From positions 23,560,001-23,624,000 of the forward strand of contig OX597816.1 of the NCBI GenBank assembly GCA_951406725.2: 64,000 nt of DNA. Direction: 5' to 3'. Made by a program: the position numbers and the translations under genes. Origin of the DNA: Octopus vulgaris (lineage: Eukaryota). The notes below the pieces were generated by a model. That model was not told where the DNA came from. It saw nothing but the letters and a program-made list of their open reading frames with translations, and ran no database searches. Of the stretch, positions 15,816-39,732 are shown in pieces (the first letter of the stretch is position 1; every line of letters begins with the position of its first letter).

Positions 15816-16057
15816 TGTATGTATGTATGTATGTATGTATGTATGTATGTATACGTTTGTGTGTCTGTGTTTGTCCCCCCAACATCGCTTGACAACTGAT
15901 GCTGGTGTGTTTACATCTCCGTAACGTAGCGGTTCAGCAAAAGAGACCGATAGAATAAGTACTAGGCTTACAAAAAATAAGTCCTGGGGTTGATTTTCTC
16001 GACTAAAGGCGGTGCTCCAGCATGGCCACAGTCAAATGACTGAAACAAATAAAAGAA
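15619..16057 (+). mobile_element. SINE family A, full length
   Basis: GGCGCAGGAGTGGCTGTGTGGTAAG (A-box-like), GGTTCAGTCCC (B-box-like), GGCACCTTGGGCA (CORE-like), (TATG)n, conserved tail. Confidence 0.9.
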
Positions 16058-17011
16058 TACATACATCTGACGAGCTTCTGCACAGTTTCTATCGACCAAA
16101 CTCCCACACAAAGCATGGGTCGACCTTAGGTGTAGTTGAAGACACTTGCTCAAGATGTCACTCAGAAGAACTGAACTGCAAACCACATGGTTGGAATATG
16201 AGCTCCTTAACCACACACCCATTCCTGTACCTATAAATCTGTTTTTCAAATTTCACCCTATCAACCTTTAAAAAAATTGGTTAGAATACAGCGAATTGTG
16301 TAACCATGGATGCATGAAACACGGAGCCTGAAATTTAGAAAACATGATAGTCGCGTTAAAACACTTTTGAGAATATTTCTTATCAGGGGCTGATCTAGGC
16401 AAAATAACAACATGAAGAACATGAGCGCACTTGACAGGCGGCGATACGTAACGCTGGACTACTGAGCCAACAGAAAGCTAGAAATAACAATCAAATTCCC
16501 TCAAGTCACACCCTACCGTGTTTACAAAAAAGGAGGGACACATTGACCATTGTAGTCCAAGACGTAGGTAAAATAGGATGTTCTGGTTTGGAATATCCTT
16601 GATCATGTATCTGCTTAATCCCAAGGCTGATCTGAGCTAAAGTACTATATAACAGCAACAACAAGATGAATCGTGCAACACAAGAAACATAACACCAAAG
16701 TGGTAAATGGGCACAGAGCGGTGGCGGGAAAAGGTATACAGATAGACAAACAGACAGACAGATACATGGCTGAACAAACGAAGGCTCATTCTATTTGGAT
16801 GGTCACTATGGATTAAGATCAGATCATTTTAACGATGAATTTCGTTATCTTTGATCAGCATTCATATTTAAGAACTACTTTCGGGGGAACATTCGTAAAT
16901 CTCCGTAAAAATAGGATACTGATATTCTACTCATGTCTCTGGGAGAAAGATTTGATGTCGCTAATATAATACAGGAAGCCATAGATTCTCTATTATAGTT
17001 GTTGTTGCTGT

Positions 17012-17168
17012 AGGAGTGGCTGTGTGGTAAGTAGCTTGCTTACCAACCACATGGTTCCGGGTTCAGTCCCACTGCGTGGCACTTTGGGCAAGTGTCTTCT
17101 ACTATAGCCTCGGGCCGACAAAATCCTTGTGAGTGGATTTGGTAGACGGAAACTGAAAGAAGGCCGTC

Positions 17169-17234
<66 letters not shown>

Positions 17235-17445
17235 TTGTGTGTCTGTGTTTGTCCCCCCAACATCGCTTGACAACCGATGCTGATGTGTTTATGTCCCCGT
17301 AACTTAGCGGTTCGGTAAAAAAGACCGATAGAATAAGTACTAGGCCTACAAAGAATAAGTCCTGGGGTCTATTTGCTCGACTAAAGGAGTTGCTCCAGCA
17401 TGGCCACAGTCAAATGGCTGAAACAAGTAAAAGAGTAAAAGAGAG
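17012..17445 (+). mobile_element. SINE family A
   Basis: Near-full-length match to the 15619 copy. Confidence 0.9.
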
Positions 17446-19274
17446 TTGTATAGCCGAGACCAACCCAGTTTGAGCAAACATTTTTTTCAAAGCCATTACA
17501 GCTGTGACCATCCCTTCCTTTTAAGGAATGTCTAGAACTGCATTATATCTTTTATTTTATCTTTTATCTGTTTCAGTGATTGGATAGCGACCATGCTGTA
17601 GCACCGCCATGAAATGTCTAGTGGAACAAGTCGATCGTAATACTTATTTTTTAAGTCTCAGACTTATTTTATCACATCTTATGGCCGAAACGTTGGTTTA
17701 TGGAGGCGTAAACAAACCAACAACGGTTGAAAACGGTGGAGGGGCAAACACACATGCACACATACACATATGTATGTATTATTTGACGGGCTACCACGCA
17801 GTTTCCATCAGCTAAATTCACATACAAGATACTGGTGGCTCCGGAGCTACAGTAGGAGACGCTGACCGAAGATACCACAAAGTGGGACTGAACCTGGAGC
17901 TACATGGTTTCAAAGCTAGCTTCTTAACCACAAAGCCATGCCTGCATTTACAATGTGTCCTTTTATTATATATATATGAGATGTAGAAAGTGGTTTGAGA
18001 GAGAGATTTGGCTGCTATTTCTAGGAGACCGAGCGACTATGTGAAGATGTCCTTGATATGTTTGTATCATCAGAAGGCGCAGTTCATCTCTTGAAGCTGG
18101 AGGTAACCTGATACAGTCTGTAATATAAATGTCCTTTCGCCCAGTTTCGATGTTGTGCTAAAACCAACAAGAAGCTTACTAAGGCAATGAAGCTGTCTGT
18201 ACACGGCCTACTCAAAAGTGTTATTTATCCCCGATGCTCTATATAAAGACAGCGTTGTCAGTAGATTCTCCACGATCTAATGCACATTATTAATGAATTC
18301 ATGATGGTAATGAAGACACAGTCTAAAGACCATTAATAAAGCTTATCTAATATCAAATTCGCTGAGCAAGAATTTTCATTAACGAATACAATAGTAAATT
18401 ATTTTGCAACCGCCATGTTGTTTGTGAATATTTGACATTTAATTCTAATAGTTACAAGTTAGCCTTATTCCTGCCTACAGAATTAAAAGTCAACAGCGTA
18501 AGCTTACGATATGGTGTTTTATCAGTTATACAGTCAGTGCATCCTCTGTTTACTGTGTTCTAAGACTGCATTCACGCAGATATTTCTGGCATTCGATATA
18601 TGTTAACAGCTAGCTGGACAAGATCAAAAAATAAAACACGCAAAATAAGATACAAACCGTTGTCTGATACTATCCATTTCTATCTTTCTTTCTTTCTTTT
18701 TTTTTTTTCTCCGCCCCCTCACTCTCTCTCTCCCTCTGGACCAAGTCATCTGCGTCTCTTAACTCAAATAGAAAATTAAATAGTAGATAAAACGGAAATG
18801 TCAACACACGTTTTTCAACGATAATTCTAACTTTAATGAATTCGCTATGTGCATACAAAATCAATACAAACGTCTTCGTTTAACTTTAGACAGAGGATAA
18901 AATATACAAAGACCAAAAGCTTAATATGCAAAACTGGAAAATAGCGTGAGCTAATGTCAAATAAATAAGAATAGTTTTCCTCTGAAGCAACTGTTACAAT
19001 TTGTAGATGTCTGCATCATGTTCTTTTCTTCCATTCATTATTTCTGTGTCTCTATATTTCTGTCTCGTTTTCTTATACACCAAACCTTTCTTCCCTTTTA
19101 GCTTTCTTGTTTTATTGATTGCTTGACATTTTTACATTTCTCCATTTCCTTTCACAACAATTTTTATTCTTTTGTTTTCTTTATTTTTTTATTAATTTCT
19201 TCATTGACCTTATGTTTCATTCACTACTGGAAATATACTGTCAGCAGATCTCTTCAGAAAACATTAGCTATATA

Positions 19275-19364
<90 letters not shown>

Positions 19365-19540
19365 ATGAATGTATATATTATATATATATACACATGTATT
19401 TATATATATGCAGATATGTGTGTATATATATATGTATATATATATGCATATATAAATATATATGTACATATGTATGTATATATATATATATATGTATAGA
19501 TGTGTATATATGGAGATATATATATGTATATATATGTATA

Positions 19541-19600
<60 letters not shown>

Positions 19601-19821
19601 GTATATATATGTATGTATATGTATATATATATATATATATATAAAAGTACAAAGTTAGATAGGGGTTATGAGTGTAACCCACTATGGGATATCATTTATC
19701 CAATATACTGCCAGTAAAGTACCCAGAAGGCTAATACATAAATGCTAAGAATTGCAATGCAATTATTTCATTTATTGTATTATATGGGCGAAGGTAAAAT
19801 GTTTTACCTCAAATTCATAAT

Positions 19822-20322
19822 ACAAAATAAGAAAATGGAGGAATAGATTTCTTTCATTCATCAACTTCCAGATAATACCAATTCATATAATCTATTAACT
19901 AATTATTTAGATTAAATAGGAACATCCAAATCCAACAGAATAATACAGAATAAAACAATATACATCAATAAGTAAGATAATATCATAAGAATAATACATA
20001 TATAATGGATCTTACAGCTTTTTCAGCCTGTAGATAAGAGTATCTCATTATACCCATATTAGTCAGATGTATTGAGGTAATAGGCAGTTAAAAAATATGG
20101 GCATAATGAGATACTATTATCTACAGGCTGAAACAGCTGTAACATCCATTATATATGTATTATTCTTATGGTATTATCTTATTGATATATATTGTTTTAT
20201 TCTGTATTCTGTTGGATGTGGATGTTCTTATTTAATCTAAATATTTAGTTAATAAATTATATGAATTGGTATTATCTGGAAGTTGATGATTCAAAGAAAT
20301 CTATTCCTCCATTTTCTTATTT

Positions 20323-28986: not shown

Positions 28987-29047
<61 letters not shown>

Positions 29048-29213
29048 TACGACGGACTTCTTTCAGTTTCCGTCTACCAAATCCACTCACAAGGCTTTGG
29101 TCGACCCGAGGCTATAGTACAAGACACTTGCCCAAGGTGCCACGCAGTGGGGCTGAACCCAGAACCATGTGTTTGGTAAGCAAGCTACTTACCACACAGC
29201 CACTCTTACGCCT
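28760..29213 (-). mobile_element. SINE family A
   Basis: Full-length reverse-strand copy with internal (TA)n. Confidence 0.88.
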
Positions 29214-29690
29214 GTATGTATACATTTTCCTACAATAATTGGTAAATAAATTAAAATGAAAACGGGAACGAGTGTATAGCATTTTCGAAATAAAATCAGT
29301 TACGAAGCTGTATGGAAAAGAACCACATTTATATATAAATGACAAAAGAAATTAAACGCTTTAACTATCCTGCCTATTAGTATTTTTTTAATGAAATCAA
29401 ATATATGTGTTTGTGAGGGTGAGTGTAGGTGTGTATGTATGTGTGGAGGCGCGAGGCTTGGTGGTTAGAATGTGGACTTACGATCGTAAGATTGTGGTTT
29501 CGATTCCTGAACCAGGTGATCGGTTGAGTTCCAGAGCAAAACATTTTATTCCATGTTGCTCCAGTCCATTCAGTTGTAGAAATGAGTTTAGACTGGAGAG
29601 GGATGAGCTCCGCCTGTCTTCCTCTCCCGAGATACGCTGCGTGTGAATAGCAACCCGACGCCTCCCAATGGATTAAGGGTCTTTTCAAGC

Positions 29691-29736
<46 letters not shown>

Positions 29737-29757
29737 ATATAATATAATATAATATAT

Positions 29758-29821
<64 letters not shown>

Positions 29822-30035
29822 ATATATAATATATAATTATTATATATGAGAATGGCAGAGACCAGGAGATGCAGTAGATATTGTTAGAAGTACACATGAA
29901 GGAGTCGGTGATGCACGCTCCACGGAACGTGTTCTGGCAAGGGCGGTGTAGATAGTGGTGAGAAGATATCCACGTAGGATGAAGTGGCGAACAATGAGTT
30001 GAGACTGAGTCTCAAAGTCATGGTCGTCACAACAA

Positions 30036-30074
<39 letters not shown>

Positions 30075-30075
<1 letters not shown>

Positions 30076-30446
30076 TAGCAGTATCGCCCGGCGTTGCTCG
30101 GGTTTGTAAGGGAAATAACTATAAAGCATTTTTAGAGAGTTATAGCCAAAAAATGGGAAAAAAATGACGGTAAATTTTTTTTTTAGTTAAAAAGGTCGAG
30201 TTGCGTCCCCTAGACAGTCTGTGGTTTGTGTTTCTGATTCTCGACCCCATGTCGAATTTATCGATTTTTTTCAGAAGTGGGGGAACTTTTCAAAATTTTC
30301 GCTGCGTTAGTTTTGAATTATGACATTGGGCTATGTGTGTGTCAAGTTTCATCAGAATCGGTTGAAAGCCGTGGTCAGGGTGAGGGTACAACCTAACAGA
30401 CACACAGAAACATACACAGACAAACTGCCGTTTATATATAGAGAGA
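30075..30446 (-). mobile_element. Non-autonomous Helitron (same 3' end as 6187-6580, different interior)
   Basis: The first ~75 bp match 6187 onward. TC...hairpin-CTAG termini, located in a TA tract. Confidence 0.75.
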
Positions 30447-30450
30447 TACA

Positions 30451-31448
30451 TATATGGATGTGTGTAAATACATTTGAAATACATGTGTAAGAAACAGGTT
30501 AAATAAGAATTTTAGTACGTTTAGTATCACTTCTACCAACCCCGTCTTATTAAATATGTATTTTTACTTTCTGCATTTATCGTTATTCTGCACTGAAAAT
30601 AATAATTAAGAAAATAATTCACATTTATGAAAGAAGTTCTCATACACAATGGATATCATTATGACTAAGTGAATGTATTGCGCTGTTAGACAGAAAATAT
30701 ATTAATTTATTTCACACATGTTAAAAAAAAAATAGATTCGTTTTCAGAACACCTGACAGCTGATCAGAAACTATTTGTCTAACTTGTTAATTAGAGTTGG
30801 AAATTAGGAAATAGTCAGACAAAATGCAGAATGTATTAGCTATTCATTAATTGAATGTATTAACTCATATCACAATATGTCGTATATGCAAAGTACAAAG
30901 GAGACATACCAGAAATTCAGTTGGTTTGAGCTAAAAGTAGAAAATTTAACAATAATAAAATCCTTTTCTATTATAAGCACGAGGCCTGAATTTTGGAGGG
31001 AGGGAGCCAGTTGATTACATGGGGATCTCATATCAAGAGAAACAGCATATGACCTTGCAGGTGAAGGCCCAGTTAGAATTTTCTTCTGGTCGAGTAGCCC
31101 ATCCCGCTCAAAAGGTCCCTGAATAAGGATTGTTTAAGGATGTTGAACGAACCACCCATGTTCCCAAAGGTGAATTATCCAAACCTCTACAACACATGGC
31201 TATGATGCTCTCCAACTACTTCTGCTCGTGGTCAGAGATGCACATATCGTCAGTCACTAAGGGACATTCTCAACCGGTTAAGTTCAAAGAAATGACAAGC
31301 AAATTTGTGGTATTGAGCAGAATATTTGCTGTAGCCCATCTTTTATACCAAGACAAAACAATGTACATGATAACACTTCCAATCAGCTAAGATCAGAAGC
31401 CACGAGAGCCACTGTCTGGTACTGCATGAGGGCATTTATTATTATTAT

Positions 31449-31484
<36 letters not shown>

Positions 31485-31936
31485 CAGTAGCAGCAGCAGC
31501 AGCAGCAGCAGCATGGTGGAGGCAACTGAGGGCCAACTTACAACATGTATCTAGTATGAGACATGTTAATTTGTGTTTTCAAATCTTTATGACAAAGAAT
31601 CCAAATACCAGTTATATTGCCGTCAATCATTCAATTCAATATATGATACCCCTCGTTAAGAAGCAACTTTGTACTGAATCTGAATCGAAAGAAAAAGAAA
31701 TTCTCCTTCTTCTTCGTCTTCTTCTTCGTCTTCTCATTATCATTTTTATTACTTATTTATTTACTTATTCACATCTGATTTTTATTGATCTTGTTGACAT
31801 TATTACAGCTGTTATTGTTATTTGGCGATGTGGTTGTTTTTACAATGACTGCTGTTGCCTTGCCTTGCTTGCTTTTATTATATTTTATTGTTTTGACATG
31901 ATTAACAGAGAAATACGACTTGAGAGTTAACTAACA
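30451..31936 (+). repeat. Left copy of ~1.5-kb direct duplication
   Basis: Matches 39726-41209 with scattered substitutions and small indels. Confidence 0.95.
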
Positions 31937-32235
31937 GTTGTCTGTTCGTCTTCGCTACGATGTTACTTTGTTAGTTAGATGTTACTTTTTCATCGATACA
32001 CTGAACTTTGAACGACTGAATACGAGTGCCTGCTTGGTTGGTAAATTGCTGTTGCTTTGTTGGCTTAATCACTGTTGTTTTGGTGTCTTTTCAATAAGAC
32101 TGTTAGTGGCCTTCGTGCGAGGGCTGCGTACTTGGTTCCCCCCCCCGCGGGGGAATTATTGTGTGTCATCGTGTGTGAAACACATCCAAAAAAAAAAAAA
32201 AAAAAAATTTTTCTACAAACGGCTGCAAAGCCAGA

Positions 32236-33600
32236 ATGTCTTCGGAAGGCGGTGAATGCCAACTGGAAAAAAAACTCGAAATGGAATTCCCCATTTCTTA
32301 TTCACCAATCTCAGGTGATGGAAGCTCTCAAGCCTCAGGTGAAGAAAGCTCACCGGCGGTGACGCCGGAAAAAGAACCGGCGGTAACGCCAGGAAAAAAG
32401 GCCCCAGCGAAGAAGTTCGCAGAAGTTGTGGGGCGTAAACAAAAAAGTATAAATGTAGATAATCTGGAAAAATACGAAGCCCTTCTAAAAAAAGAAGGAA
32501 ATGAGATAGCAGTAAAAAAAGATGTTGAAAAAAAGGAAGAGATTGAAAAGAAAAGGATAATTTATAAGACATACAGCACGACAACAAAAAGTATACAAAA
32601 AGTGGAAGAGAGTAAAATAGAGGAGTCCCTGAAGGCAATTAGAAAGGACGTCACCTATATAAACAGAGGAAGACGGTTCGGAACGGTAGAAGTGAGGTTT
32701 AGGACCGAAGAAATAGCAAAGAGGCTATCTACCGAACCACAAAAAGCAGGAAACATAGTCCTTCTACCCTTGTACAAAGGAAGAAGGACTTCGAAAATAG
32801 TTATGAGGAATATTCCCCCAGAGGCGGACGCCACATGCCTGGTGGCGGCAGTGATGCTGGGCCTGAAGGAAAAAATCAATATCCTACAAGCTACAGTGGA
32901 GGAGGAGGGTTTTTGGCAGGGCCAGATCATCACAATGGCAATACAAGCGGAGGCCCAGACACTGGAGGAAATACCAGAGGTGCTGAGGCTCGATGAGGAG
33001 GAGAGAGTATTGGTATTTGTAGAAGGAAGAAAGCCGAGGTGCTTCGGCTGCGGGAAAAAGGGACACGTAAGAGCGGAGTGTCAACCTAAACCGCAGGTAG
33101 AAGCACCGTCGGAAAAAGAAGAAGCTGAGAAGGAAAAGAAAACAGAAGAAACCAAAGAGGTAGAAAAATCATCGAGTGGTGCGGAAAAAGAAAAAGAAAA
33201 CGAAAAAGAGGAGGGGTGGTCTAAAGTTACCAAAAAAAAACTGAAAACAGAAACCACCCCTCAAGACGAAGAAAACCAGAAGAAAAGAAAAGAAGTTACT
33301 ACTTCATTTATGGCCATTAAGGCTACGAACAACAGACTAGTCAATGTGTTGGCAGCCATGGCCAATGTGGAAAGAGTAAGGAGAACGAAAGACTGTATCG
33401 TGTACAAAATAGGCCGGAAGGACTACAGGAGGATAAAATCCGAATTCTTCCACGACGTGGGCCCTCTGAGACTGGACATGTCTCCATATCTCTACGAGGG
33501 CCTGCGTCGGACTCCCCCACGAGCCAAGGAAAAAAATAAAAACGAAGAAGACGACGAAAAACAAGGCAAGCCAGTCGAACAAGTCGAACCACTGATATAA
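32236..33600 (+). CDS. LINE ORF1 nucleic-acid-binding (gag-like) protein, 454 aa
   Basis: CX2CX4HX4C zinc knuckle CFGCGKKGHVRAEC, upstream RRM-like segment, K/E-rich tail, located directly before ORF2. Exact start codon uncertain. Confidence 0.9.
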   Translation: MSSEGGECQLEKKLEMEFPISYSPISGDGSSQASGEESSPAVTPEKEPAVTPGKKAPAKKFAEVVGRKQKSINVDNLEKYEALLKKEGNEIAVKKDVEKKEEIEKKRIIYKTYSTTTKSIQKVEESKIEESLKAIRKDVTYINRGRRFGTVEVRFRTEEIAKRLSTEPQKAGNIVLLPLYKGRRTSKIVMRNIPPEADATCLVAAVMLGLKEKINILQATVEEEGFWQGQIITMAIQAEAQTLEEIPEVLRLDEEERVLVFVEGRKPRCFGCGKKGHVRAECQPKPQVEAPSEKEEAEKEKKTEETKEVEKSSSGAEKEKENEKEEGWSKVTKKKLKTETTPQDEENQKKRKEVTTSFMAIKATNNRLVNVLAAMANVERVRRTKDCIVYKIGRKDYRRIKSEFFHDVGPLRLDMSPYLYEGLRRTPPRAKEKNKNEEDDEKQGKPVEQVEPLI

Positions 33601-33608
33601 GGTAAGTT

Positions 33609-36600
33609 ATGGACTACATTTATGTTGGTTGTTTAAATGTGCGCGGCCTGGGATCAAGCGGGAAGCAAGGTCGCTTCCTTAATGATATCAGGTCGCGTAA
33701 TTTGGATGTTATTGTTGCTACAGAAACCCGGTTAAAGGGGCCAAGAAGTCTACTCCCGCTGTTTGACGGCTACGAGAGTTTTTTCTCTCCGGCCAGTCCT
33801 ACAGGCGGGGGTGGGGTGTTGGTCCTATTAAAAAGAAACCGGGTTTTTGAGAAAAAGTTAATTTTTTCAGACCCAGAAGGTAGGCTGGTCGTCATGGATT
33901 TGACGTTCAGTAACGGTAAAGTTATCAGACTGGTTGCAATTTACGCACCCAATACAGGGCAAAGTGATTATTTTCGTGAACTAGAAAACTTTCTCGGTAC
34001 TTCGCATTCATTAGTTGTGCTAGGAGACTTTAACACAATTTGCAAAGCGGATGTAGATTGTGTTGGCTCGAATGCAGATAGAAAAGGTAACTATTGCTTC
34101 CTGGAACTGCTAAGCCGCTTTGAGCTAGCAGATCCTTATAGGTTGGAATTTCCGAACGCTCCATTGTGGACATGGTCAAACAGCGACGGATCTTCCAGGT
34201 CATACATAGATAGAATTCTAATTAGAAAGGTAGACAGTAAAATAGCTAATTGTCCACAGTTTTACCCGATCAGCTACAGTGATCATAAAATGGTCACTTG
34301 TAAGCTTGACATAGATAAGGTTAGAAATAGAGGATCCGGTTACTGGAAACTTAATACGTCCCTTTTGGCGATTAAGGAGTACAGAGACCGGATTAGGACT
34401 ATAATTCAGAGGGCGCTGTCTGGTGCCATCATTAATAACAAATGGTGGTACGCCCTCAAACGAGCCATCAAGTTTGAGTCTATTAGATATAGCATAGGAG
34501 TAGTGACTAGAGAGGCTAGAAGGGAAACTACTCTAGTTAAGGAATTAGAGGAAGCCATGAAAACTGGCTCTGCGGCTCAGGTGGCGTCCAAGAGACTGGT
34601 GTTAAACCAGCACCTCGAGGCCAAACACATGGGCTGCATTGTCAGGGCTAGAATCCGTCATACGGGATGTGAAGGAATCAACGCCGTGAGATGGGCCCGA
34701 GTGGTGGAAGCCCGGAATGGCAACGATGCCACGATTCGATCTTTGAAGAACCAACAAGGTGAGTTGATAAACGAACCCGAGGAGATGTGTGAGGCCTTTC
34801 AGGAGCACTTCGCTCAGCTTTTCGGTGAGTGCGGCGGGCTGGATAGGAGGAGGGCCTTTACGGACCTACTCGACGGGCTGCCGCGCTTATCGGGGCGAGA
34901 TGCGGAGGGCTGTGAAGGGCCAATCACGCCTGAGGAGGTGGTTGAGGCAATGACGGACTGCGGCGCGGGCAAGGCGCCGGGTTTGGATGGTCTACCCTAT
35001 GAGTTATATAAGAGTATGCCAGACTTGTTCGGGCACCTACTGGCGGAGGTCTATGCGAACTGGCAGCAGAACGGGCTTATACCCAGATCTGTGCGCCGGG
35101 GAGTGGTGACTCTCGTCAGAAAGGACCCGAGCAAGGGGGAGTGCATTGATAATTTCAGGCCCATCACTCTGCTAAACACAGAGTTGAAGATTTTGGCCAA
35201 AGTGTTATCGAAAAGATTGGCGCGTGTCGCGGATGGTCTGATCGGGGAGGCACAGACATGTGCCGTTCCGGGCAGAACCATTCAGGATAATCTCCATCTA
35301 ATGCGGTACACTATAGAGGGGTTTAATAGTGATTCTGGCAAGGGTGGGGCACTGGTCCATTTAGACCAATCCAAGGCTTTTGATAGGGTCGACCATCGTT
35401 ACCTGGTATCTGCCCTGGCACAGTTCGGGCTGAGCCTTGGCTTCCTCAGGTGGATTATCCAAATTTATGACAACATCGACTCGGTAGTTCGGGTGAACGG
35501 CTTCTTGTCGAAGCCGTTCAAAATCAAACGCTCGGTTCGTCAAGGGTGTCCGCTCTCCCCGCTTTTGTACGTGATGGCTCTTGAGCCATTACTGCGAAAA
35601 CTGAGCGGCATCCCGAGACAGCCAGGTAATGGAAAATCAGTGTCAGCGTACGCGGACGACATCACCATCATCGTAACCGAAATGGACCACCTATGTAAAG
35701 TAGGCAAGGCCATAGAGGTTTACGAGACGGTGACAGGAGCAAAAGTTAATCGCGAAAAGTCAGTCGGCTTGCAACTCGGCACCTGGAGAGGCAAGTCGAT
35801 GCCTCCTGACAGCGTCGTGGGACGTTGGACGGAGGGTCCGATTAAACTGCTAGGGGTCTGGTTCGGTCCAGACCTCCAAATAGAGAAGAATTGGGGCGAG
35901 GTAACGAGCAAGGTGGCTGCAGTAGCCAAGACCTGGTCTTGGCGGTGGCTATCCCTGAAAGGGAGGGCGGAGGTGGCCAATGTGTTTATCGCATCGGTTA
36001 TCACCTACCGCCTTTCCGTCGTTCCATGCCCTGATTCGTGGTTGATCAAGTTGGAAAGACAGCTCTTCTACTTCTTGTGGAAGGGCGGGAAACCATTTGT
36101 GAAACGCTCTACTTGCTGTCAACAACCGTTAAAGGGTGGGCTAGGGATGCCTTGGCTGATGATGCGCAAACATGCGCTGAGGTTAAGACATCTGTGGCTC
36201 TACCTGGATGGTGAACGGGTGTGGTCTTCGCTAGCAAAACTGATGTTTCCCAAGTTCACTAGTTTCGGTGGATGGGAAACCTGGTTGAATCTTAAATCGA
36301 AACTGGGCACATGGTATACGGAGTGTCGCAAGGCTCTCCTGCTATTCCGTCGCTCGGGCAACGCCTGCGGTGGGGGTTCCACCACATTCTTCTATAGAGG
36401 GTTGGTAGAGGCGGAATGTGAAGACACCCTGGGGGAAACCCTAGGTCTCGACGATAATCAGCTGGCCAGTCTGTTCCGACGTACGTTCGAGCCGAAGACA
36501 CTGGACAACTTCCAGAAGTCTCTGGCATGGCAATGCTACAGAGGAGCTCTACCTGTTCGGGATAAACTCGCAAGGCACGGTGGCCAAGACAGTCCGACGT

Positions 36601-37004
36601 GTCCAAGATGCGGGCGGGATAGGGAAACCGTCCCGCACGCTATTGTCCATTGTTCGGTCGTGTCTGAGGTGTGGGTTTATGCCGAACACCTGTTGTCAAA
36701 CACACGAAGAGTACAGCTGTCGACTGAGTGTATTAAAAAAATTGACCCACCAGACTTCCTCGCGAAAGAAGGTAAGAATTGTTTTCTCGTTGTGGTAGCA
36801 ATTGCGAAAGAGGTGATATGGAAGACGAGAATGAAAGGTATACGGTCAGGCAAGTTCATATCCGGCCCTGGGTTGATGAATTATTTCATCTTCCACCTGA
36901 AAAGGAAAGATGAGAAGATAGAGAGAAAATGCCTGACTAAAAGAGTGTATGAAGAACGATGGAAGGATGTAGCACGGAAGTTGCGAATAGATGACACCAC
37001 ATAA
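33609..37004 (+). CDS. LINE ORF2: apurinic-like endonuclease + reverse transcriptase + C-terminal zinc finger, 1131 aa
   Basis: APE motifs LNVRGL, ATET, GDFN, IDRIL, SDH. RT motifs KAPGLDG, NFRPITLLN, LDQSKAFD, RQGCPLSP, YADD, then GGLG. C-terminal CPRC...H...C. The GYWKLN linker is typical of the L1/Tx1 clade. Confidence 0.97.
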   Translation: MDYIYVGCLNVRGLGSSGKQGRFLNDIRSRNLDVIVATETRLKGPRSLLPLFDGYESFFSPASPTGGGGVLVLLKRNRVFEKKLIFSDPEGRLVVMDLTFSNGKVIRLVAIYAPNTGQSDYFRELENFLGTSHSLVVLGDFNTICKADVDCVGSNADRKGNYCFLELLSRFELADPYRLEFPNAPLWTWSNSDGSSRSYIDRILIRKVDSKIANCPQFYPISYSDHKMVTCKLDIDKVRNRGSGYWKLNTSLLAIKEYRDRIRTIIQRALSGAIINNKWWYALKRAIKFESIRYSIGVVTREARRETTLVKELEEAMKTGSAAQVASKRLVLNQHLEAKHMGCIVRARIRHTGCEGINAVRWARVVEARNGNDATIRSLKNQQGELINEPEEMCEAFQEHFAQLFGECGGLDRRRAFTDLLDGLPRLSGRDAEGCEGPITPEEVVEAMTDCGAGKAPGLDGLPYELYKSMPDLFGHLLAEVYANWQQNGLIPRSVRRGVVTLVRKDPSKGECIDNFRPITLLNTELKILAKVLSKRLARVADGLIGEAQTCAVPGRTIQDNLHLMRYTIEGFNSDSGKGGALVHLDQSKAFDRVDHRYLVSALAQFGLSLGFLRWIIQIYDNIDSVVRVNGFLSKPFKIKRSVRQGCPLSPLLYVMALEPLLRKLSGIPRQPGNGKSVSAYADDITIIVTEMDHLCKVGKAIEVYETVTGAKVNREKSVGLQLGTWRGKSMPPDSVVGRWTEGPIKLLGVWFGPDLQIEKNWGEVTSKVAAVAKTWSWRWLSLKGRAEVANVFIASVITYRLSVVPCPDSWLIKLERQLFYFLWKGGKPFVKRSTCCQQPLKGGLGMPWLMMRKHALRLRHLWLYLDGERVWSSLAKLMFPKFTSFGGWETWLNLKSKLGTWYTECRKALLLFRRSGNACGGGSTTFFYRGLVEAECEDTLGETLGLDDNQLASLFRRTFEPKTLDNFQKSLAWQCYRGALPVRDKLARHGGQDSPTCPRCGRDRETVPHAIVHCSVVSEVWVYAEHLLSNTRRVQLSTECIKKIDPPDFLAKEGKNCFLVVVAIAKEVIWKTRMKGIRSGKFISGPGLMNYFIFHLKRKDEKIERKCLTKRVYEERWKDVARKLRIDDTT

Positions 37005-37254
37005 ATGTAAATCAGAACGAAACCAAAGTATCAGTGGTGAGGCGGGGCTCGTGGGGTCCGAGCTGAACCCGCCCCCACTCCACCTGTAATGTCTTCCGGT
37101 CTGTTATTCATTCGATTTTATAATTTTTGCATTTTTGTGAATTTTTGAAATTTTTAATCTCATCCTTTTTGTAACCCCATCCGAGAATCTGACCCCACAT
37201 CAGGTTGTATCGTCCCCTCTTTGTTTGCCCCTTGTGGGTAATAAAGAAATAGGG

Positions 37255-37735
37255 CAGTTGTCTGTTCGTCTTCGCTACGTAAGGTTGGTAGTTTATTTAT
37301 GATGTGTTCAGAATCAGTTCTGCTGAGGATCATAAGACGTAAGTTGAATGTGAAATCACGGTGATACAGAACTAAATTCATTTTTTAAATGTCTTGCTTT
37401 GAAAAACTGCATTTAGGTATGATTAGTATAATTTTGGTAGTAATGACTTTGTCCCTCTTAGTGTGAGGCATTTATGTGTAATAATGCCCTCTATACAATA
37501 TAGATATAATTAATTTGTTCAAAAGGAAAAAAATTATTTTCGAATTCTTTTCTTTTATGAGGTTTTCACGCTAACTACCCGATAATTTCTTGTTAAGATC
37601 CCTTATTAAGAGATTATCCTTAATTGTTAAACTTATTCCGAAATACTTTTCATTACCCGACATGCAGTTCGTAAAAAGCCCGCCATTTACCGGATATATG
37701 ATTTATAAACATTCCATGTGCTTGGCCGGAGTGGG
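37255..37735 (+). repeat. ~481-bp unit that is the insertion target of both retroelements
   Basis: CAGTTGTCT(G/A)TTCGTC recurs at 31935, 37255, 37736 and 39452. 37254-37501 is repeated at 39451-39698 with no differences I could see. Confidence 0.8.
37256..37500 (+). ncRNA. Candidate small Pol II RNA (SL-RNA/snRNA-like), unidentified
   Basis: Starts at an Inr-like GCAGTT. Short leader followed by GT donors (TAC|GTAAGG or AAG|GTTGGT), stem AGTTCTG/CAGAACT, AATTTTGG Sm-like site at ~37430, hairpin GAGGCATT/AATGCCCTC near the end. No match to an snRNA I recognise. Confidence 0.3.
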
Positions 37736-37742
37736 CAGTTGT
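37680..37742 (+). promoter_or_regulatory. Putative core promoter of the target unit (TATA + Inr)
   Basis: TATAAA at 37704-37709 lies 33 nt upstream of the A of GCAGTT (37737). CGCCATTT at 37681, and a TACCCGA motif occurs twice further upstream. Confidence 0.45.
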
Positions 37743-37751
37743 CTATTCGTC

Positions 37752-39450
37752 AGTTTGAGTTCGGTCGTGTTTTTTTACGCTCGTAAAATTCGGTAAAAAA
37801 AGATAAAAAAGAATTGTTGTTGTTGTTGTGGAAATTTTGAACGGCGTTAAAGCGGTTTCGCGTTCCACTGGTTCTGCGCGTAACACTTTTTCTGTTTTGA
37901 CGGCCGTTTTGGCCTGTCAGGCGGGAGGAGATGGATGACCACTCCCTAGTGGAGGAGTCGGAGGAAGAATGGATATTTGAGAGCTTGTCGGAGACATCGA
38001 ACTCTGAAGACGAGCAAATCGGTGATGTAAATAATGTGGAGACAAAAAACAGGAAAACGTACGCAGGAGTTGCAAAAAGAAGACGGAACAGGAAAAAGAA
38101 ATAAACCTAGAAAAATTGCCAGGTTTCCAGAGGTATATGAGGAAGGACAGCGGCGAGGTGGAACTGGAACCACCACCAAAGAGAAAGGAATGGTACAATA
38201 AGAGGACCATAATTTACAGGGTGTTCGTGAACGAAAGAAAGAAAATAGAGATCGTAAACATGGAATGGATAGAGGAGGCCCTGAGAAGATCGGAGGAGGA
38301 AATCATTTTTCTGACTCGAGGATCGAAGTACGGTACTGTAGTGGTGCATTTTAAAAGTGAGACTGCAGCGAGGAGGATGGCGGTGAAGGCGGTGAAGTCA
38401 GAAAGGGTAACACTTTTACCTATGTACTTGAATAGAAGGATCACACGAGTAAGGGTGGAGGGAGTGCCACCAAACGTGGAGGCTGAGTGGATTGTGGCGG
38501 CTGTGATCAGCGGCCACGAGGAGAAAGTAGATATTCTCCATGCCTCGGTCAAGACCGAGGGCTGGAGAGGCGTAATAGTGGAGCTGAACGTGCAGGCGGA
38601 GAGCGAGGTACTGGTGGACCTGGCGGAGAGCATTAAATTGGGAGACGTGATTATGAGAGTGTGGGTGGAGGGCAGAGCTCCACGTTGTTACAAGTGTGGC
38701 CTGAGGGGCCACATAAGAGCCTTCTGCCCTCCCCCACCAAGAGAAAAGGAAATCGTTGAGGAAACTCCAAAAGAGGAGGCCCCAAAAGAAGAAGAAATTA
38801 AAGAGAAGCAGACGGAAAGGGAAATGACAGAGGAGGAGGAGATGCAAAAAGAGTGTGAGGAGGGCAGAAAGAAGAGAAAAGGAAAGAAAAGGAAAAACTG
38901 TGCGAAGCCCCAACCCACCCCAATACCACCCACACCCTTGGAGACCCATCCTGCCCCCGCAAACAGCAATCCCACCCACTCCCCGCCTACAAGAAAAACG
39001 AAAACAGACACACAGAACATACAAAAGCCCCAGTCCTACTTTTTATGTGTTGTGGGGAAGGAGATACTGAGAACGCAAGAAGGCTTTTTGAAGACGATGT
39101 ATGGCAGGAGTATGAGGACGGAAGCTATGCGGTATTCGATTTTGAACTCATGGGCTCTTTGATGAACAAGTGCAATGAACTAAGAATAAATTGTTTATCA
39201 GTATATTTGAAGGATGATATGATAGAGAGATATGAGAGAGAAATGAAAGGTGAGGTGAAAAACTTTGGAATCGCGATAGGAAACGGAAAGGTAAGTGATG
39301 CTGGCGGAGGGGGCCGTTAGCATCGCTTTCATGTTATCATTTTTTCATTTTAACATTCATTTAATCATAATTTTAATCGCATTGTTTTATGTCCCCCATG
39401 TTTTGTAATGTTCCCTCTTCGTGGCCCCTAGTGGGTAATAGAGAAATAGG
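37752..39450 (+). mobile_element. ORF1-only non-autonomous LINE derivative (HAL1-like)
   Basis: Encodes an ORF1 homologue and no ORF2. Ends GCCCCTAGTGGGTAATAGAGAAATAGG like the LINE. Flanked by GGGCAGTTGTCT(A/G)TTCGTC at 37733-37751 and 39449-39467. Confidence 0.85.
37931..39320 (+). CDS. Diverged ORF1/gag-like zinc-knuckle protein, with 1-2 apparent frameshifts (core frame 38116-39162)
   Basis: Aligns by eye to LINE ORF1: FLTRGSKYGTVVVHF vs YINRGRRFGTVEVRF; LLPMYLNRR vs LLPLYKGRR; VWVEGRAPRCYKCGLRGHIRAFC vs VFVEGRKPRCFGCGKKGHVRAEC. The ATG at 37931 joins the main frame if one A is added in the run near 38074-38078. The C-terminus ends at 39162 or shifts into 39045-39320. Confidence 0.75.
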
Positions 39451-39694
39451 GCAGTTGTCTGTTCGTCTTCGCTACGTAAGGTTGGTAGTTTATTTATGAT
39501 GTGTTCAGAATCAGTTCTGCTGAGGATCATAAGACGTAAGTTGAATGTGAAATCACGGTGATACAGAACTAAATTCATTTTTTAAATGTCTTGCTTTGAA
39601 AAACTGCATTTAGGTATGATTAGTATAATTTTGGTAGTAATGACTTTGTCCCTCTTAGTGTGAGGCATTTATGTGTAATAATGCCCTCTATACA

Positions 39695-39698
<4 letters not shown>
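39451..39698 (+). repeat. Second, 3'-truncated copy of the target unit
   Basis: 248-bp direct copy of 37254-37501 that runs into a (TA)n tract. Confidence 0.9.

Positions 39699-39725
<27 letters not shown>

Positions 39726-39732
<7 letters not shown>

Follow-up and report, generated by a model that had tools for sequence, protein, structure and literature searches.

Long interspersed elements (LINEs) of the Tx1 clade are known for many different targets. To our knowledge, how these elements switch from one target to another is an open question. A family is counted as target-preferring when one repeat type makes up more than 20% of its flanks, and for SINEU, transcription from the flanking target sequence has been suggested (PMC4494074). 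Non-LTR (non-long-terminal-repeat) retrozymes of animals form short dispersed tandem arrays with a type I hammerhead ribozyme in each unit and a proposed dependence on Penelope-like elements (PMC7229834; bioRxiv 10.64898/2026.07.22.740005), and Penelope-like elements themselves show partial tandems, inverted 5′ copies and a bias towards microsatellites (PMC8557442). In the octopus, a repeat annotation describes active L1-Tx1 and Penelope families (PMC13282606). Here, a stretch of 64,000 nucleotides from Octopus vulgaris (the window; GCA_951406725.2, contig OX597816.1, positions 23,560,001 to 23,624,000) was analyzed, in which a Tx1-like LINE (element A) and a passenger with a single type of open reading frame, ORF1 (element B), are each followed by the start of a 481-bp retrozyme-type repeat (unit U). 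Based on searches that covered the 2.8-Gb assembly, we propose that the LINE and its passenger insert in the sense orientation within ~25 bases of the predicted transcription start of U, borrow its promoter and ride along with Penelope-copied arrays, a reading to which a probability of about 0.6 is assigned.

Insertion of elements A and B at promoter-like starts

Positions are those of the window; unit positions run from u1 to u481, with u1 at 37254, and C-numbers denote contigs of the assembly, the window being on C3. The composite has the order X - leader - A - U - 19 bp - B - U(1-255) - (TA)n - X, where X is a flanking duplication, and all of its features from the leader to the terminal partial unit lie on the + strand. 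Element A (31960..37251) runs into a complete unit (37254..37734) of which copies exist elsewhere in the genome. Element B (37752..39448) runs into a second unit start, and the preliminary description of the window, made from the sequence alone, is correct in placing the same unit start behind both elements, at 37254 and 39451. It was also right about the 19-bp target site duplication (TSD) of B, the left copy of which (37733..37751) corresponds to u480-u17 with one mismatch. The right copy and the terminal partial unit u1-255 occupy 39449..39705, and the same junctions are found in a copy of B on C7.

Within the first 26 bases of the unit, the 3′ tail common to A and B joins U in six exact cases genome-wide and in one further case with a mismatch on C25. 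These seven junctions fall at four bases (three at u480, one at u5, one at u10 and two at u21). A rough estimate from 331 units and an assumed 2,000-20,000 family copies gives 0.007-0.07 junctions expected by chance, against 4 distinct ones observed. U, as had been suggested, is a real multicopy target that is matched far above chance. A control window of equal width in U contained no true junctions, its one match being a point variant of U, and among the fetched loci, some of which were picked for such junctions, no tail joins U outside u480-u21.

Flanks were tabulated for the top-scoring copies, namely the best 30 of 41 matches to the 3′ end of A and 30 loci of B. Four of the A loci run into U, five into an exon-like sequence termed C, 14 head-to-tail into the next family member and seven into unrelated DNA, and two of the B loci run into U. 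The 3′ flanks of other copies are mostly something other than U, which goes most of the way towards refuting the sequence-specific lineage that was originally described. A TSD finder returned 29 rows, 16 of which are clean 13-19-bp duplications with no common motif by eye; the other 13 were discarded on visual inspection, being rows from tandem arrays or low-complexity sequence, truncated rows or duplicates. Several older B-type copies have one further 3′ flank in common, which is possibly an additional target or a composite.

Where the preliminary description had seen one unrecognized repeat as the target, U can be read as a hammerhead-bearing mobile repeat with a predicted promoter, and a second, more used target had been overlooked. 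Many A arrays are preceded by a segment, V, that ends in a TATA-like box; C is its downstream half and runs to a GT donor. Among the best 30 of 40 V matches, 14 carry A-like, B-like or tail-only sequence directly after the box (three of these hold only 20-40 bases of the tail), 12 are empty and continue into C, two contain another element with a B-like head and two are unclassified. V-C has at least 40 copies and is multi-kilobase, non-coding sequence with transposon remnants that leads into satellites (for example, at C13:49862530). In four 30-kb stretches at V-C, no host ORF was found, only retroelement or transposon remnants and satellites. U and V-C display the same promoter geometry with no evident sequence in common. 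From these junctions, we infer that the A/B family prefers the start regions of U and V-C, at variable bases within them. As side observations, a 70-bp satellite and long arrays of triplets are located ~5 kb downstream of V-C, and even the empty copies of V-C are heterogeneous directly after the TATA-like box.

The leader of element A and the origin of the identical junctions

The 25 bp that precede A (31935..31959) are identical to u2-26. This match was noted in the preliminary description and stands; its interpretation as an ordinary TSD does not, as the same 5′ junction is combined with differing 3′ junctions. The u26-to-A junction occurs three times in the assembly, each time in a U composite, with the 3′ junction at u21 on C2, at u10 on C25 and at u480 in the window, and only the C25 copy has an ordinary TSD, of 17 bp. 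On the simplest reading, the 25 bp are a leader that travels as part of the RNA and pairs with the target when the 5′ joint is made. Co-transcribed target sequence that aids 5′ joining has been cited for R2 (PMC4494074). The window leader begins at the predicted start of U, and copies of the family have either 15-26 bases from U or an older tag of the V-C type at the 5′ end. In the window, a tag that resembles the V-C first exon (31991..32023; local score of 41, reached by 0 of 2000 shuffles) lies behind the leader and, because it matches the start of C, the 5′ untranslated region of A stacks tags of both promoters.

The two 3′ junctions in the window are identical, and the preliminary description had A and B arriving at this base independently. 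However, within the tail that is common to A, B and an abundant short interspersed element (SINE) (37205..37251 in A), the last 8 bases of window A are those of B, whereas its closest relatives, on C25 and C17, end otherwise. In addition, the insertion of B in U is common to the C3 window and C7 (5 substitutions in 1692). Because window A has a B-type end and B-in-U is also present on C7, u480 probably represents one event that was copied, and the junction of A was probably acquired by template switch or conversion in the common tail. A comparable case may be a 5′-truncated A at C3:181 Mb that has the same u21 junction as the C2 copy, with 13 differences in 2726 bases, which fits a copying of A together with U. 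Separately, a U-A-U composite at C2:63.53 Mb has a 31-base inverted duplication of flanking DNA at both ends.

Unit U as a retrozyme-type repeat

When the assembly was searched with U, the best 40 of 1634 candidates contained 194 matches. These form short arrays, are spread over most chromosomes and, where listed, are 95-100% identical. The unit has no ORF and forms dispersed short tandem repeats. Empty sites were also looked for and found, as the preliminary description anticipated: because 481-bp tandem arrays free of insertions are present elsewhere, the unit does not always travel with the elements. The 3′ ends of the arrays are recurrent. Of 72 distinct ends that abut (TA)n, 28 are at u255, which is also where the terminal partial unit of the window stops, 23 are at u383, and 68 lie within u249-265 or u374-392; these counts cover fetched loci, part of them picked for tail-to-U junctions. 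A further 33 ends mostly represent sites of internal inversion or joins between units. The 5′ ends of the arrays are variable (truncated) and often inverted.

A type I hammerhead ribozyme is predicted at u63-120 (37316..37373), with a 7-bp stem I, a conserved core, a short stem II, a palindromic stem III and a predicted cut after u113 (37366). The core consensus that was applied is the one that we take to be general for hammerheads. A second such motif lies in the terminal partial unit (39513-39570). Genome-wide, 331 exact cores were found and the reversed pattern did not occur, and the descriptor was matched by 0 of 2000 Markov controls in its strict form and by 1 of 2000 in its loose form. 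Among U copies, G, C and T all occur at core position 7, and loop 2 also varies. In a sister family that is 71% identical to U, the core is kept and three of the seven stem I pairs are changed on both sides (6 of 500 shuffles), as judged from an alignment of seven hand-picked sequences, of which one is informative. The locus of this family at C13:64549700-64550480 has its own hammerhead motif, the upstream promoter-like motif of U, an inverted structure and a TA-rich end. In a public run, U contigs close on the unit (“goes back 481”), a pattern that a DNA tandem gives as well. Judged by the motif, the controls and the sister family, U is of the retrozyme type, a dispersed repeat whose hammerhead is predicted to be self-cleaving.

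Predicted promoter and first exon of U

A core promoter is predicted at 37680..37709, with a YY1-like motif at 37680 and a TATA box at 37704 (u451), ~30 bases before the initiator-like start of the next unit; the TATA, initiator and YY1-like labels follow consensus sequences that we presume to apply. The YY1-like motif is kept in the 71%-identical sister family. In one contig from a public run that is presumed to be RNA, U continues up to u30 and then departs, which defines a putative first exon (37254..37283) with a GT donor behind it at 37284. The bases beyond u30 have a single location in the genome, on C13, where they immediately follow an AG acceptor and belong to a coding exon of Gfo/Idh/MocA-like type (a match with E 7e-4 that does not reach the curated cut-off). 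On the same strand, 18.3 kb from this exon, is a copy of U that has its promoter upstream (C13:64552691 to 64534326). The arrangement indicates that this case is cis-splicing from the GT donor of U at u31. Here, a U copy appears to give an alternative first exon to the host Gfo/Idh/MocA-like oxidoreductase gene.

A further indication comes from two B copies on C14 that begin with u478-15, have no U upstream and carry their own 17-bp TSD, as would be expected for RNA begun at the promoter of U. These copies are a tandem double insertion of B at the retained 17-bp TSD, and tandem formation by double insertion is known (PMC5932611). Together, the spliced contig and the leader start points support an RNA polymerase II (Pol II) promoter in U that would fire near u478-u3.

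Coding content and relatives of A and B

The intact two-ORF LINE of the preliminary description is confirmed. ORF1 of A (32236..33600, 454 aa) has one CCHC knuckle, for which the zf-CCHC match is below cut-off and the motif is visible in the sequence, and ORF2 (33609..37004, 1131 aa) has domain matches to an APE endonuclease, a reverse transcriptase (RT) and a C-terminal zinc motif (zf-RVT). This combination is Tx1-type. The nearest named relative of ORF2 is from Argonauta (64% identity), and in separate searches the RT region scored 277 bits against a coral protein labelled “Transposon TX1” and 113 bits against human L1 ORF2p. From its domains and best named match, A is classed as a Tx1-like LINE. 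Window A differs by 0.7% from the C25 copy (38 substitutions in ~5290), by 2.1% from the C2 copy and by 17 substitutions in 3230 from its C17 relative.

Members of the A family also form head-to-tail arrays of 3 to at least 7 full-length copies with a 5.28-kb period, some of them mixed with B-type elements. Such arrays are located at C27:32.95-32.99 Mb, C22:14.18-14.25 Mb, C30:10.43-10.45 Mb and on C58.

Element B contains only an ORF1-like frame (37931-39162) and has the 3′ tail of A, in agreement with the ORF1-only partner that had been described; that partner is not intact, as the frame is broken in the window copy, in which a frameshift leaves 57 aa compared with 410 aa in the C7 copy. Because the two ORF1s are only 36% identical, over 204 aa, B is best regarded as an old separate lineage with a 47-base tail in common with A and not as a recent deletion of A. 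With its sole ORF1, common 3′ tail, own TSDs and independent copies, B fits a HAL1-like pattern, and it would be mobilized by the ORF2 of A. The tail is also found on SINE copies at 5594-5961, 7732-8340, 13088, 13965 and 54227-54275 of the window, with TSDs of 15-18 bp. Because of this common tail and these TSDs, the A/B LINE family is the likely partner of the SINE. Of 19 SINE tails sampled, 10 continue into another SINE body, nine of these at one position.

Penelope-like candidates for mobilizing U

The U arrays show marks of the Penelope type, namely partial tandems, an inverted 5′ copy and a microsatellite target, which would fit mobilization of U by a Penelope-like element. An abundant Penelope-like family in this genome has intact 781-codon frames with RT and GIY-YIG domains (for example, at C16:20834500-20842500). 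In seven of the nine intact loci that were fetched, a common terminal repeat contains a TATA box and a donor, as well as a motif that resembles a hammerhead on visual inspection, and five of these seven loci end in (TA)n. The longest match of this family to U is 19 bases and, because it has no real similarity to U, the family is a candidate mobilizer only. It appears young, with a zinc-linker motif like that of Neptune and a U3-A8 core variant in its hammerhead-like motif.

The duplication that brackets the composite

The entire composite is bracketed by a 1.5-kb direct duplication, X (30433..31936 and 39708..41209), the two copies of which differ by 14 substitutions (7 at microsatellite edges and 7 outside) and 8 gap events. 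At its 3′ junction, the composite has a (TA)n tract (39698..39730). The leader at 31935-31959 is not preceded by a unit. The preliminary description held that removal of both elements rebuilds a tandem array; the ~481-bp unit is real, but no clean array results on the left, because X, not the unit, is found upstream of 31935. The duplication reads as an unusually long target duplication, and it may also have an assembly cause. Directly to the left of X, at 30065-30430, is a repeat fragment between two (TA)n tracts, the first 90 bases of which match window 6178-6266.

Mechanism and alternatives

The proposed mechanism would combine two retroelement cycles. U, whose short dispersed arrays stop at two fixed 3′ ends next to (TA)n, would be mobilized by a probably Penelope-like element; its hammerhead is predicted to cleave after u113, and its promoter would fire near u478-u3. 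An endonuclease with little base specificity would preferentially reach the DNA of such start sites. Transcripts of an inserted LINE would then start in the host promoter, and their leader could anneal to a matching target during 5′ joining, which would favor full-length re-insertion into the same promoter family. Finally, at the window locus, a leader-A-U-B-U255 complementary DNA, which a template switch or conversion within the common tail had probably produced, would have integrated at a TA-rich site with the 1.5-kb duplication.

Several results weigh against this account. The preference for start sites can be only partial, because seven of the 30 A loci and the majority of the B loci lie in unrelated sequence, and the leader does not dictate the insertion site, because the two C14 copies of B with a U leader sit outside U. 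The enrichment estimate depends on assumed copy numbers and its single control window is thin, the V query was taken from an occupied copy, and some V copies, having common junctions, are duplicates of one event. As to the ribozyme, an Rfam scan of 29000-42000 gave 19 weak matches with no hammerhead or small RNA gene, the minimum-energy fold of U retains stem I and lacks the hammerhead fold (z = -0.91), and the compensatory changes in stem I all come from one sister sequence. Furthermore, the closing pair of stem II is a U/U or A/C mismatch, not the usual G-C, in both U and the sister family; this G-C pair is highly conserved (PMC4209133). The mismatch may lower ribozyme activity, the G-C pair being typical of hammerheads and not defining. 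Splicing is seen in a single contig, and that its run consists of RNA is a guess. No Penelope-like partner similar to U was found beside 30 hammerhead loci or among nine intact-frame loci, in a search that covered a minority of the Penelope families. The assembly contains no source locus with the full arrangement of the window, and none of 23 other U arrays tested has long direct duplications at its flanks.

The alternatives differ in what selects the insertion site. Under strict Tx1 specificity, as in the preliminary description, one base of the unit would be cut, A and B would have arrived independently, and both flanking repeats would be TSDs. The three u480 junctions (two in the window and one on C7) and the 19-bp TSD of B are what such an enzyme would leave, and Tx1 families that target other transposons are known (PMC4494074). 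This explanation is very improbable given that junctions fall at four bases of U, that all but four of the 30 A loci and all but two of the 30 B loci are elsewhere, that the TSDs lack a common motif, that the u480 junctions probably go back to one event, and that the start regions of U and V-C have no evident common sequence. Near-random nicking is the opposite extreme: the excess at start regions would come from rescue by leader homology, repeated insertion into retained TSDs and later copying. The single 5′ junction with differing 3′ junctions, the many dispersed truncated copies, the copying seen in the common junctions of V copies and of C3 and C7, and the C14 double insertion all fit this explanation, which we nevertheless consider rather unlikely. 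Leaderless, tail-only inserts are present at both start regions (three V copies and one U copy), and at least four distinct bases in U and ~6 in V-C are used where fewer than 0.1 would be expected.

A role for the leader before joining is a further alternative, in which the captured leader would guide the ribonucleoprotein and RNA-DNA pairing would pick the site before or during nicking. All three A junctions with a U leader are in U composites, and A subfamilies with V-C-type tags are mostly in V-C arrays, as a guide would predict. Set against this are the C14 copies of B, a truncated A on C17 that is 99.4% identical and lies in unrelated DNA, and the existence of tail-only inserts, and with very few events to judge from we regard guidance as improbable. 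It was also considered that U might be an array of spliced-leader RNA genes and A a leader-targeting LINE like NeSL or SLACS, which we take to be elements of that kind. The idea had some appeal because, in one contig, a 30-base first exon that ends at a GT donor continues into a coding exon of the host, and because insertions lie inside this first exon. Nothing relevant to it appeared among the entries listed in a literature search. It was dropped, and now seems scarcely tenable, because the sole spliced case has a promoter-bearing source copy of U in cis, 18.3 kb upstream on the same strand; the dispersed (TA)n-embedded arrays, the inversions and the hammerhead motif are likewise unlike leader gene clusters. 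Preferential insertion at promoter starts, followed by passage with the U arrays, remains our preferred reading.

An extension of the preferred reading is offered more tentatively, as a possibility that we hold to be on the doubtful side. With its endonuclease unchanged, the LINE would gain new target families by landing at an active start and capturing 15-30 bases, and the resulting leader would steer later full-length insertions. If this is true, the tag stack records successive hosts, the newest of which is a ribozyme retroelement whose copying by a second reverse transcriptase carries the entire LINE. The locus family offers a testable route of target switching, by start-site preference and leader capture: a single genome provides copies with an intact ORF2, sites with and without insertions, and two targets that are unrelated to each other. 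A three-tier parasitism is likely, with a LINE in a retrozyme and the retrozyme on Penelope-type machinery, and animal retrozymes gain a concrete predicted Pol II promoter that may in one case serve as an alternative first exon of a host gene.

Comparison with known systems

A literature search that covered sources other than Repbase and most subscription journals gave, among the entries listed, no report of cephalopod retrozymes, of LINEs that target retrozymes or of an arrangement like that of the window, and the U, A and B families may already be catalogued. The available text of the retrozyme preprint does not mention “octopus”, “mollus” or “promoter” (bioRxiv 10.64898/2026.07.22.740005), and the one supplement of the octopus annotation that was available contains neither “retrozyme” nor “hammerhead” (PMC13282606). 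U resembles animal retrozymes in its dispersed short arrays, low GC content, lack of an ORF and one type I hammerhead per unit in at least two consecutive units. At 481 bp it is longer than the monomers of ~170-400 nt described for animals, which is a descriptive range (PMC7229834), and it differs from them in its evident architecture of TATA box, first exon and donor, the mismatch at the base of stem II and the LINE insertions. With Penelope-like elements and their pseudo-LTRs, U has in common a hammerhead with a palindromic stem III, a retained intron and an inverted 5′-truncated copy (PMC8557442, PMC4209133). Unlike them, it has no ORF, and it shows no significant similarity to the Penelope family examined.

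Among LINEs, A is similar to Tx1L/Tx1D, Tx1-Mar with SINEU, Keno, Kibi and Koshi in being a two-ORF APE element that inserts into a mobile element or multicopy unit, and passengers with the same preference and tandem insertions are likewise described for target-preferring Tx1 families (PMC4494074). A and B depart from those families in using two unrelated promoter-like targets at variable bases, in having a retrozyme as a target and in carrying stacked 5′ tags from successive hosts. HeT-A is presumably also an ORF1-only member of its group and can, in this respect, be likened to B. A closer parallel for B is HAL1 (half-L1), a non-autonomous LINE derivative with ORF1 only (PMC5753468). Transcription from outside, as proposed for A and B, and head-to-tail mixed arrays relate the two elements to R2 in 28S ribosomal DNA and to HeT-A/TART/TAHRE of Drosophila (PMC4494074, PMC5537684). 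R2, however, is base-specific and has a different endonuclease, whereas A uses variable bases, and HeT-A uses the 3′ promoter of its neighbor at telomeres (PMC5537684), whereas A and B would take their promoter from unrelated repeats.

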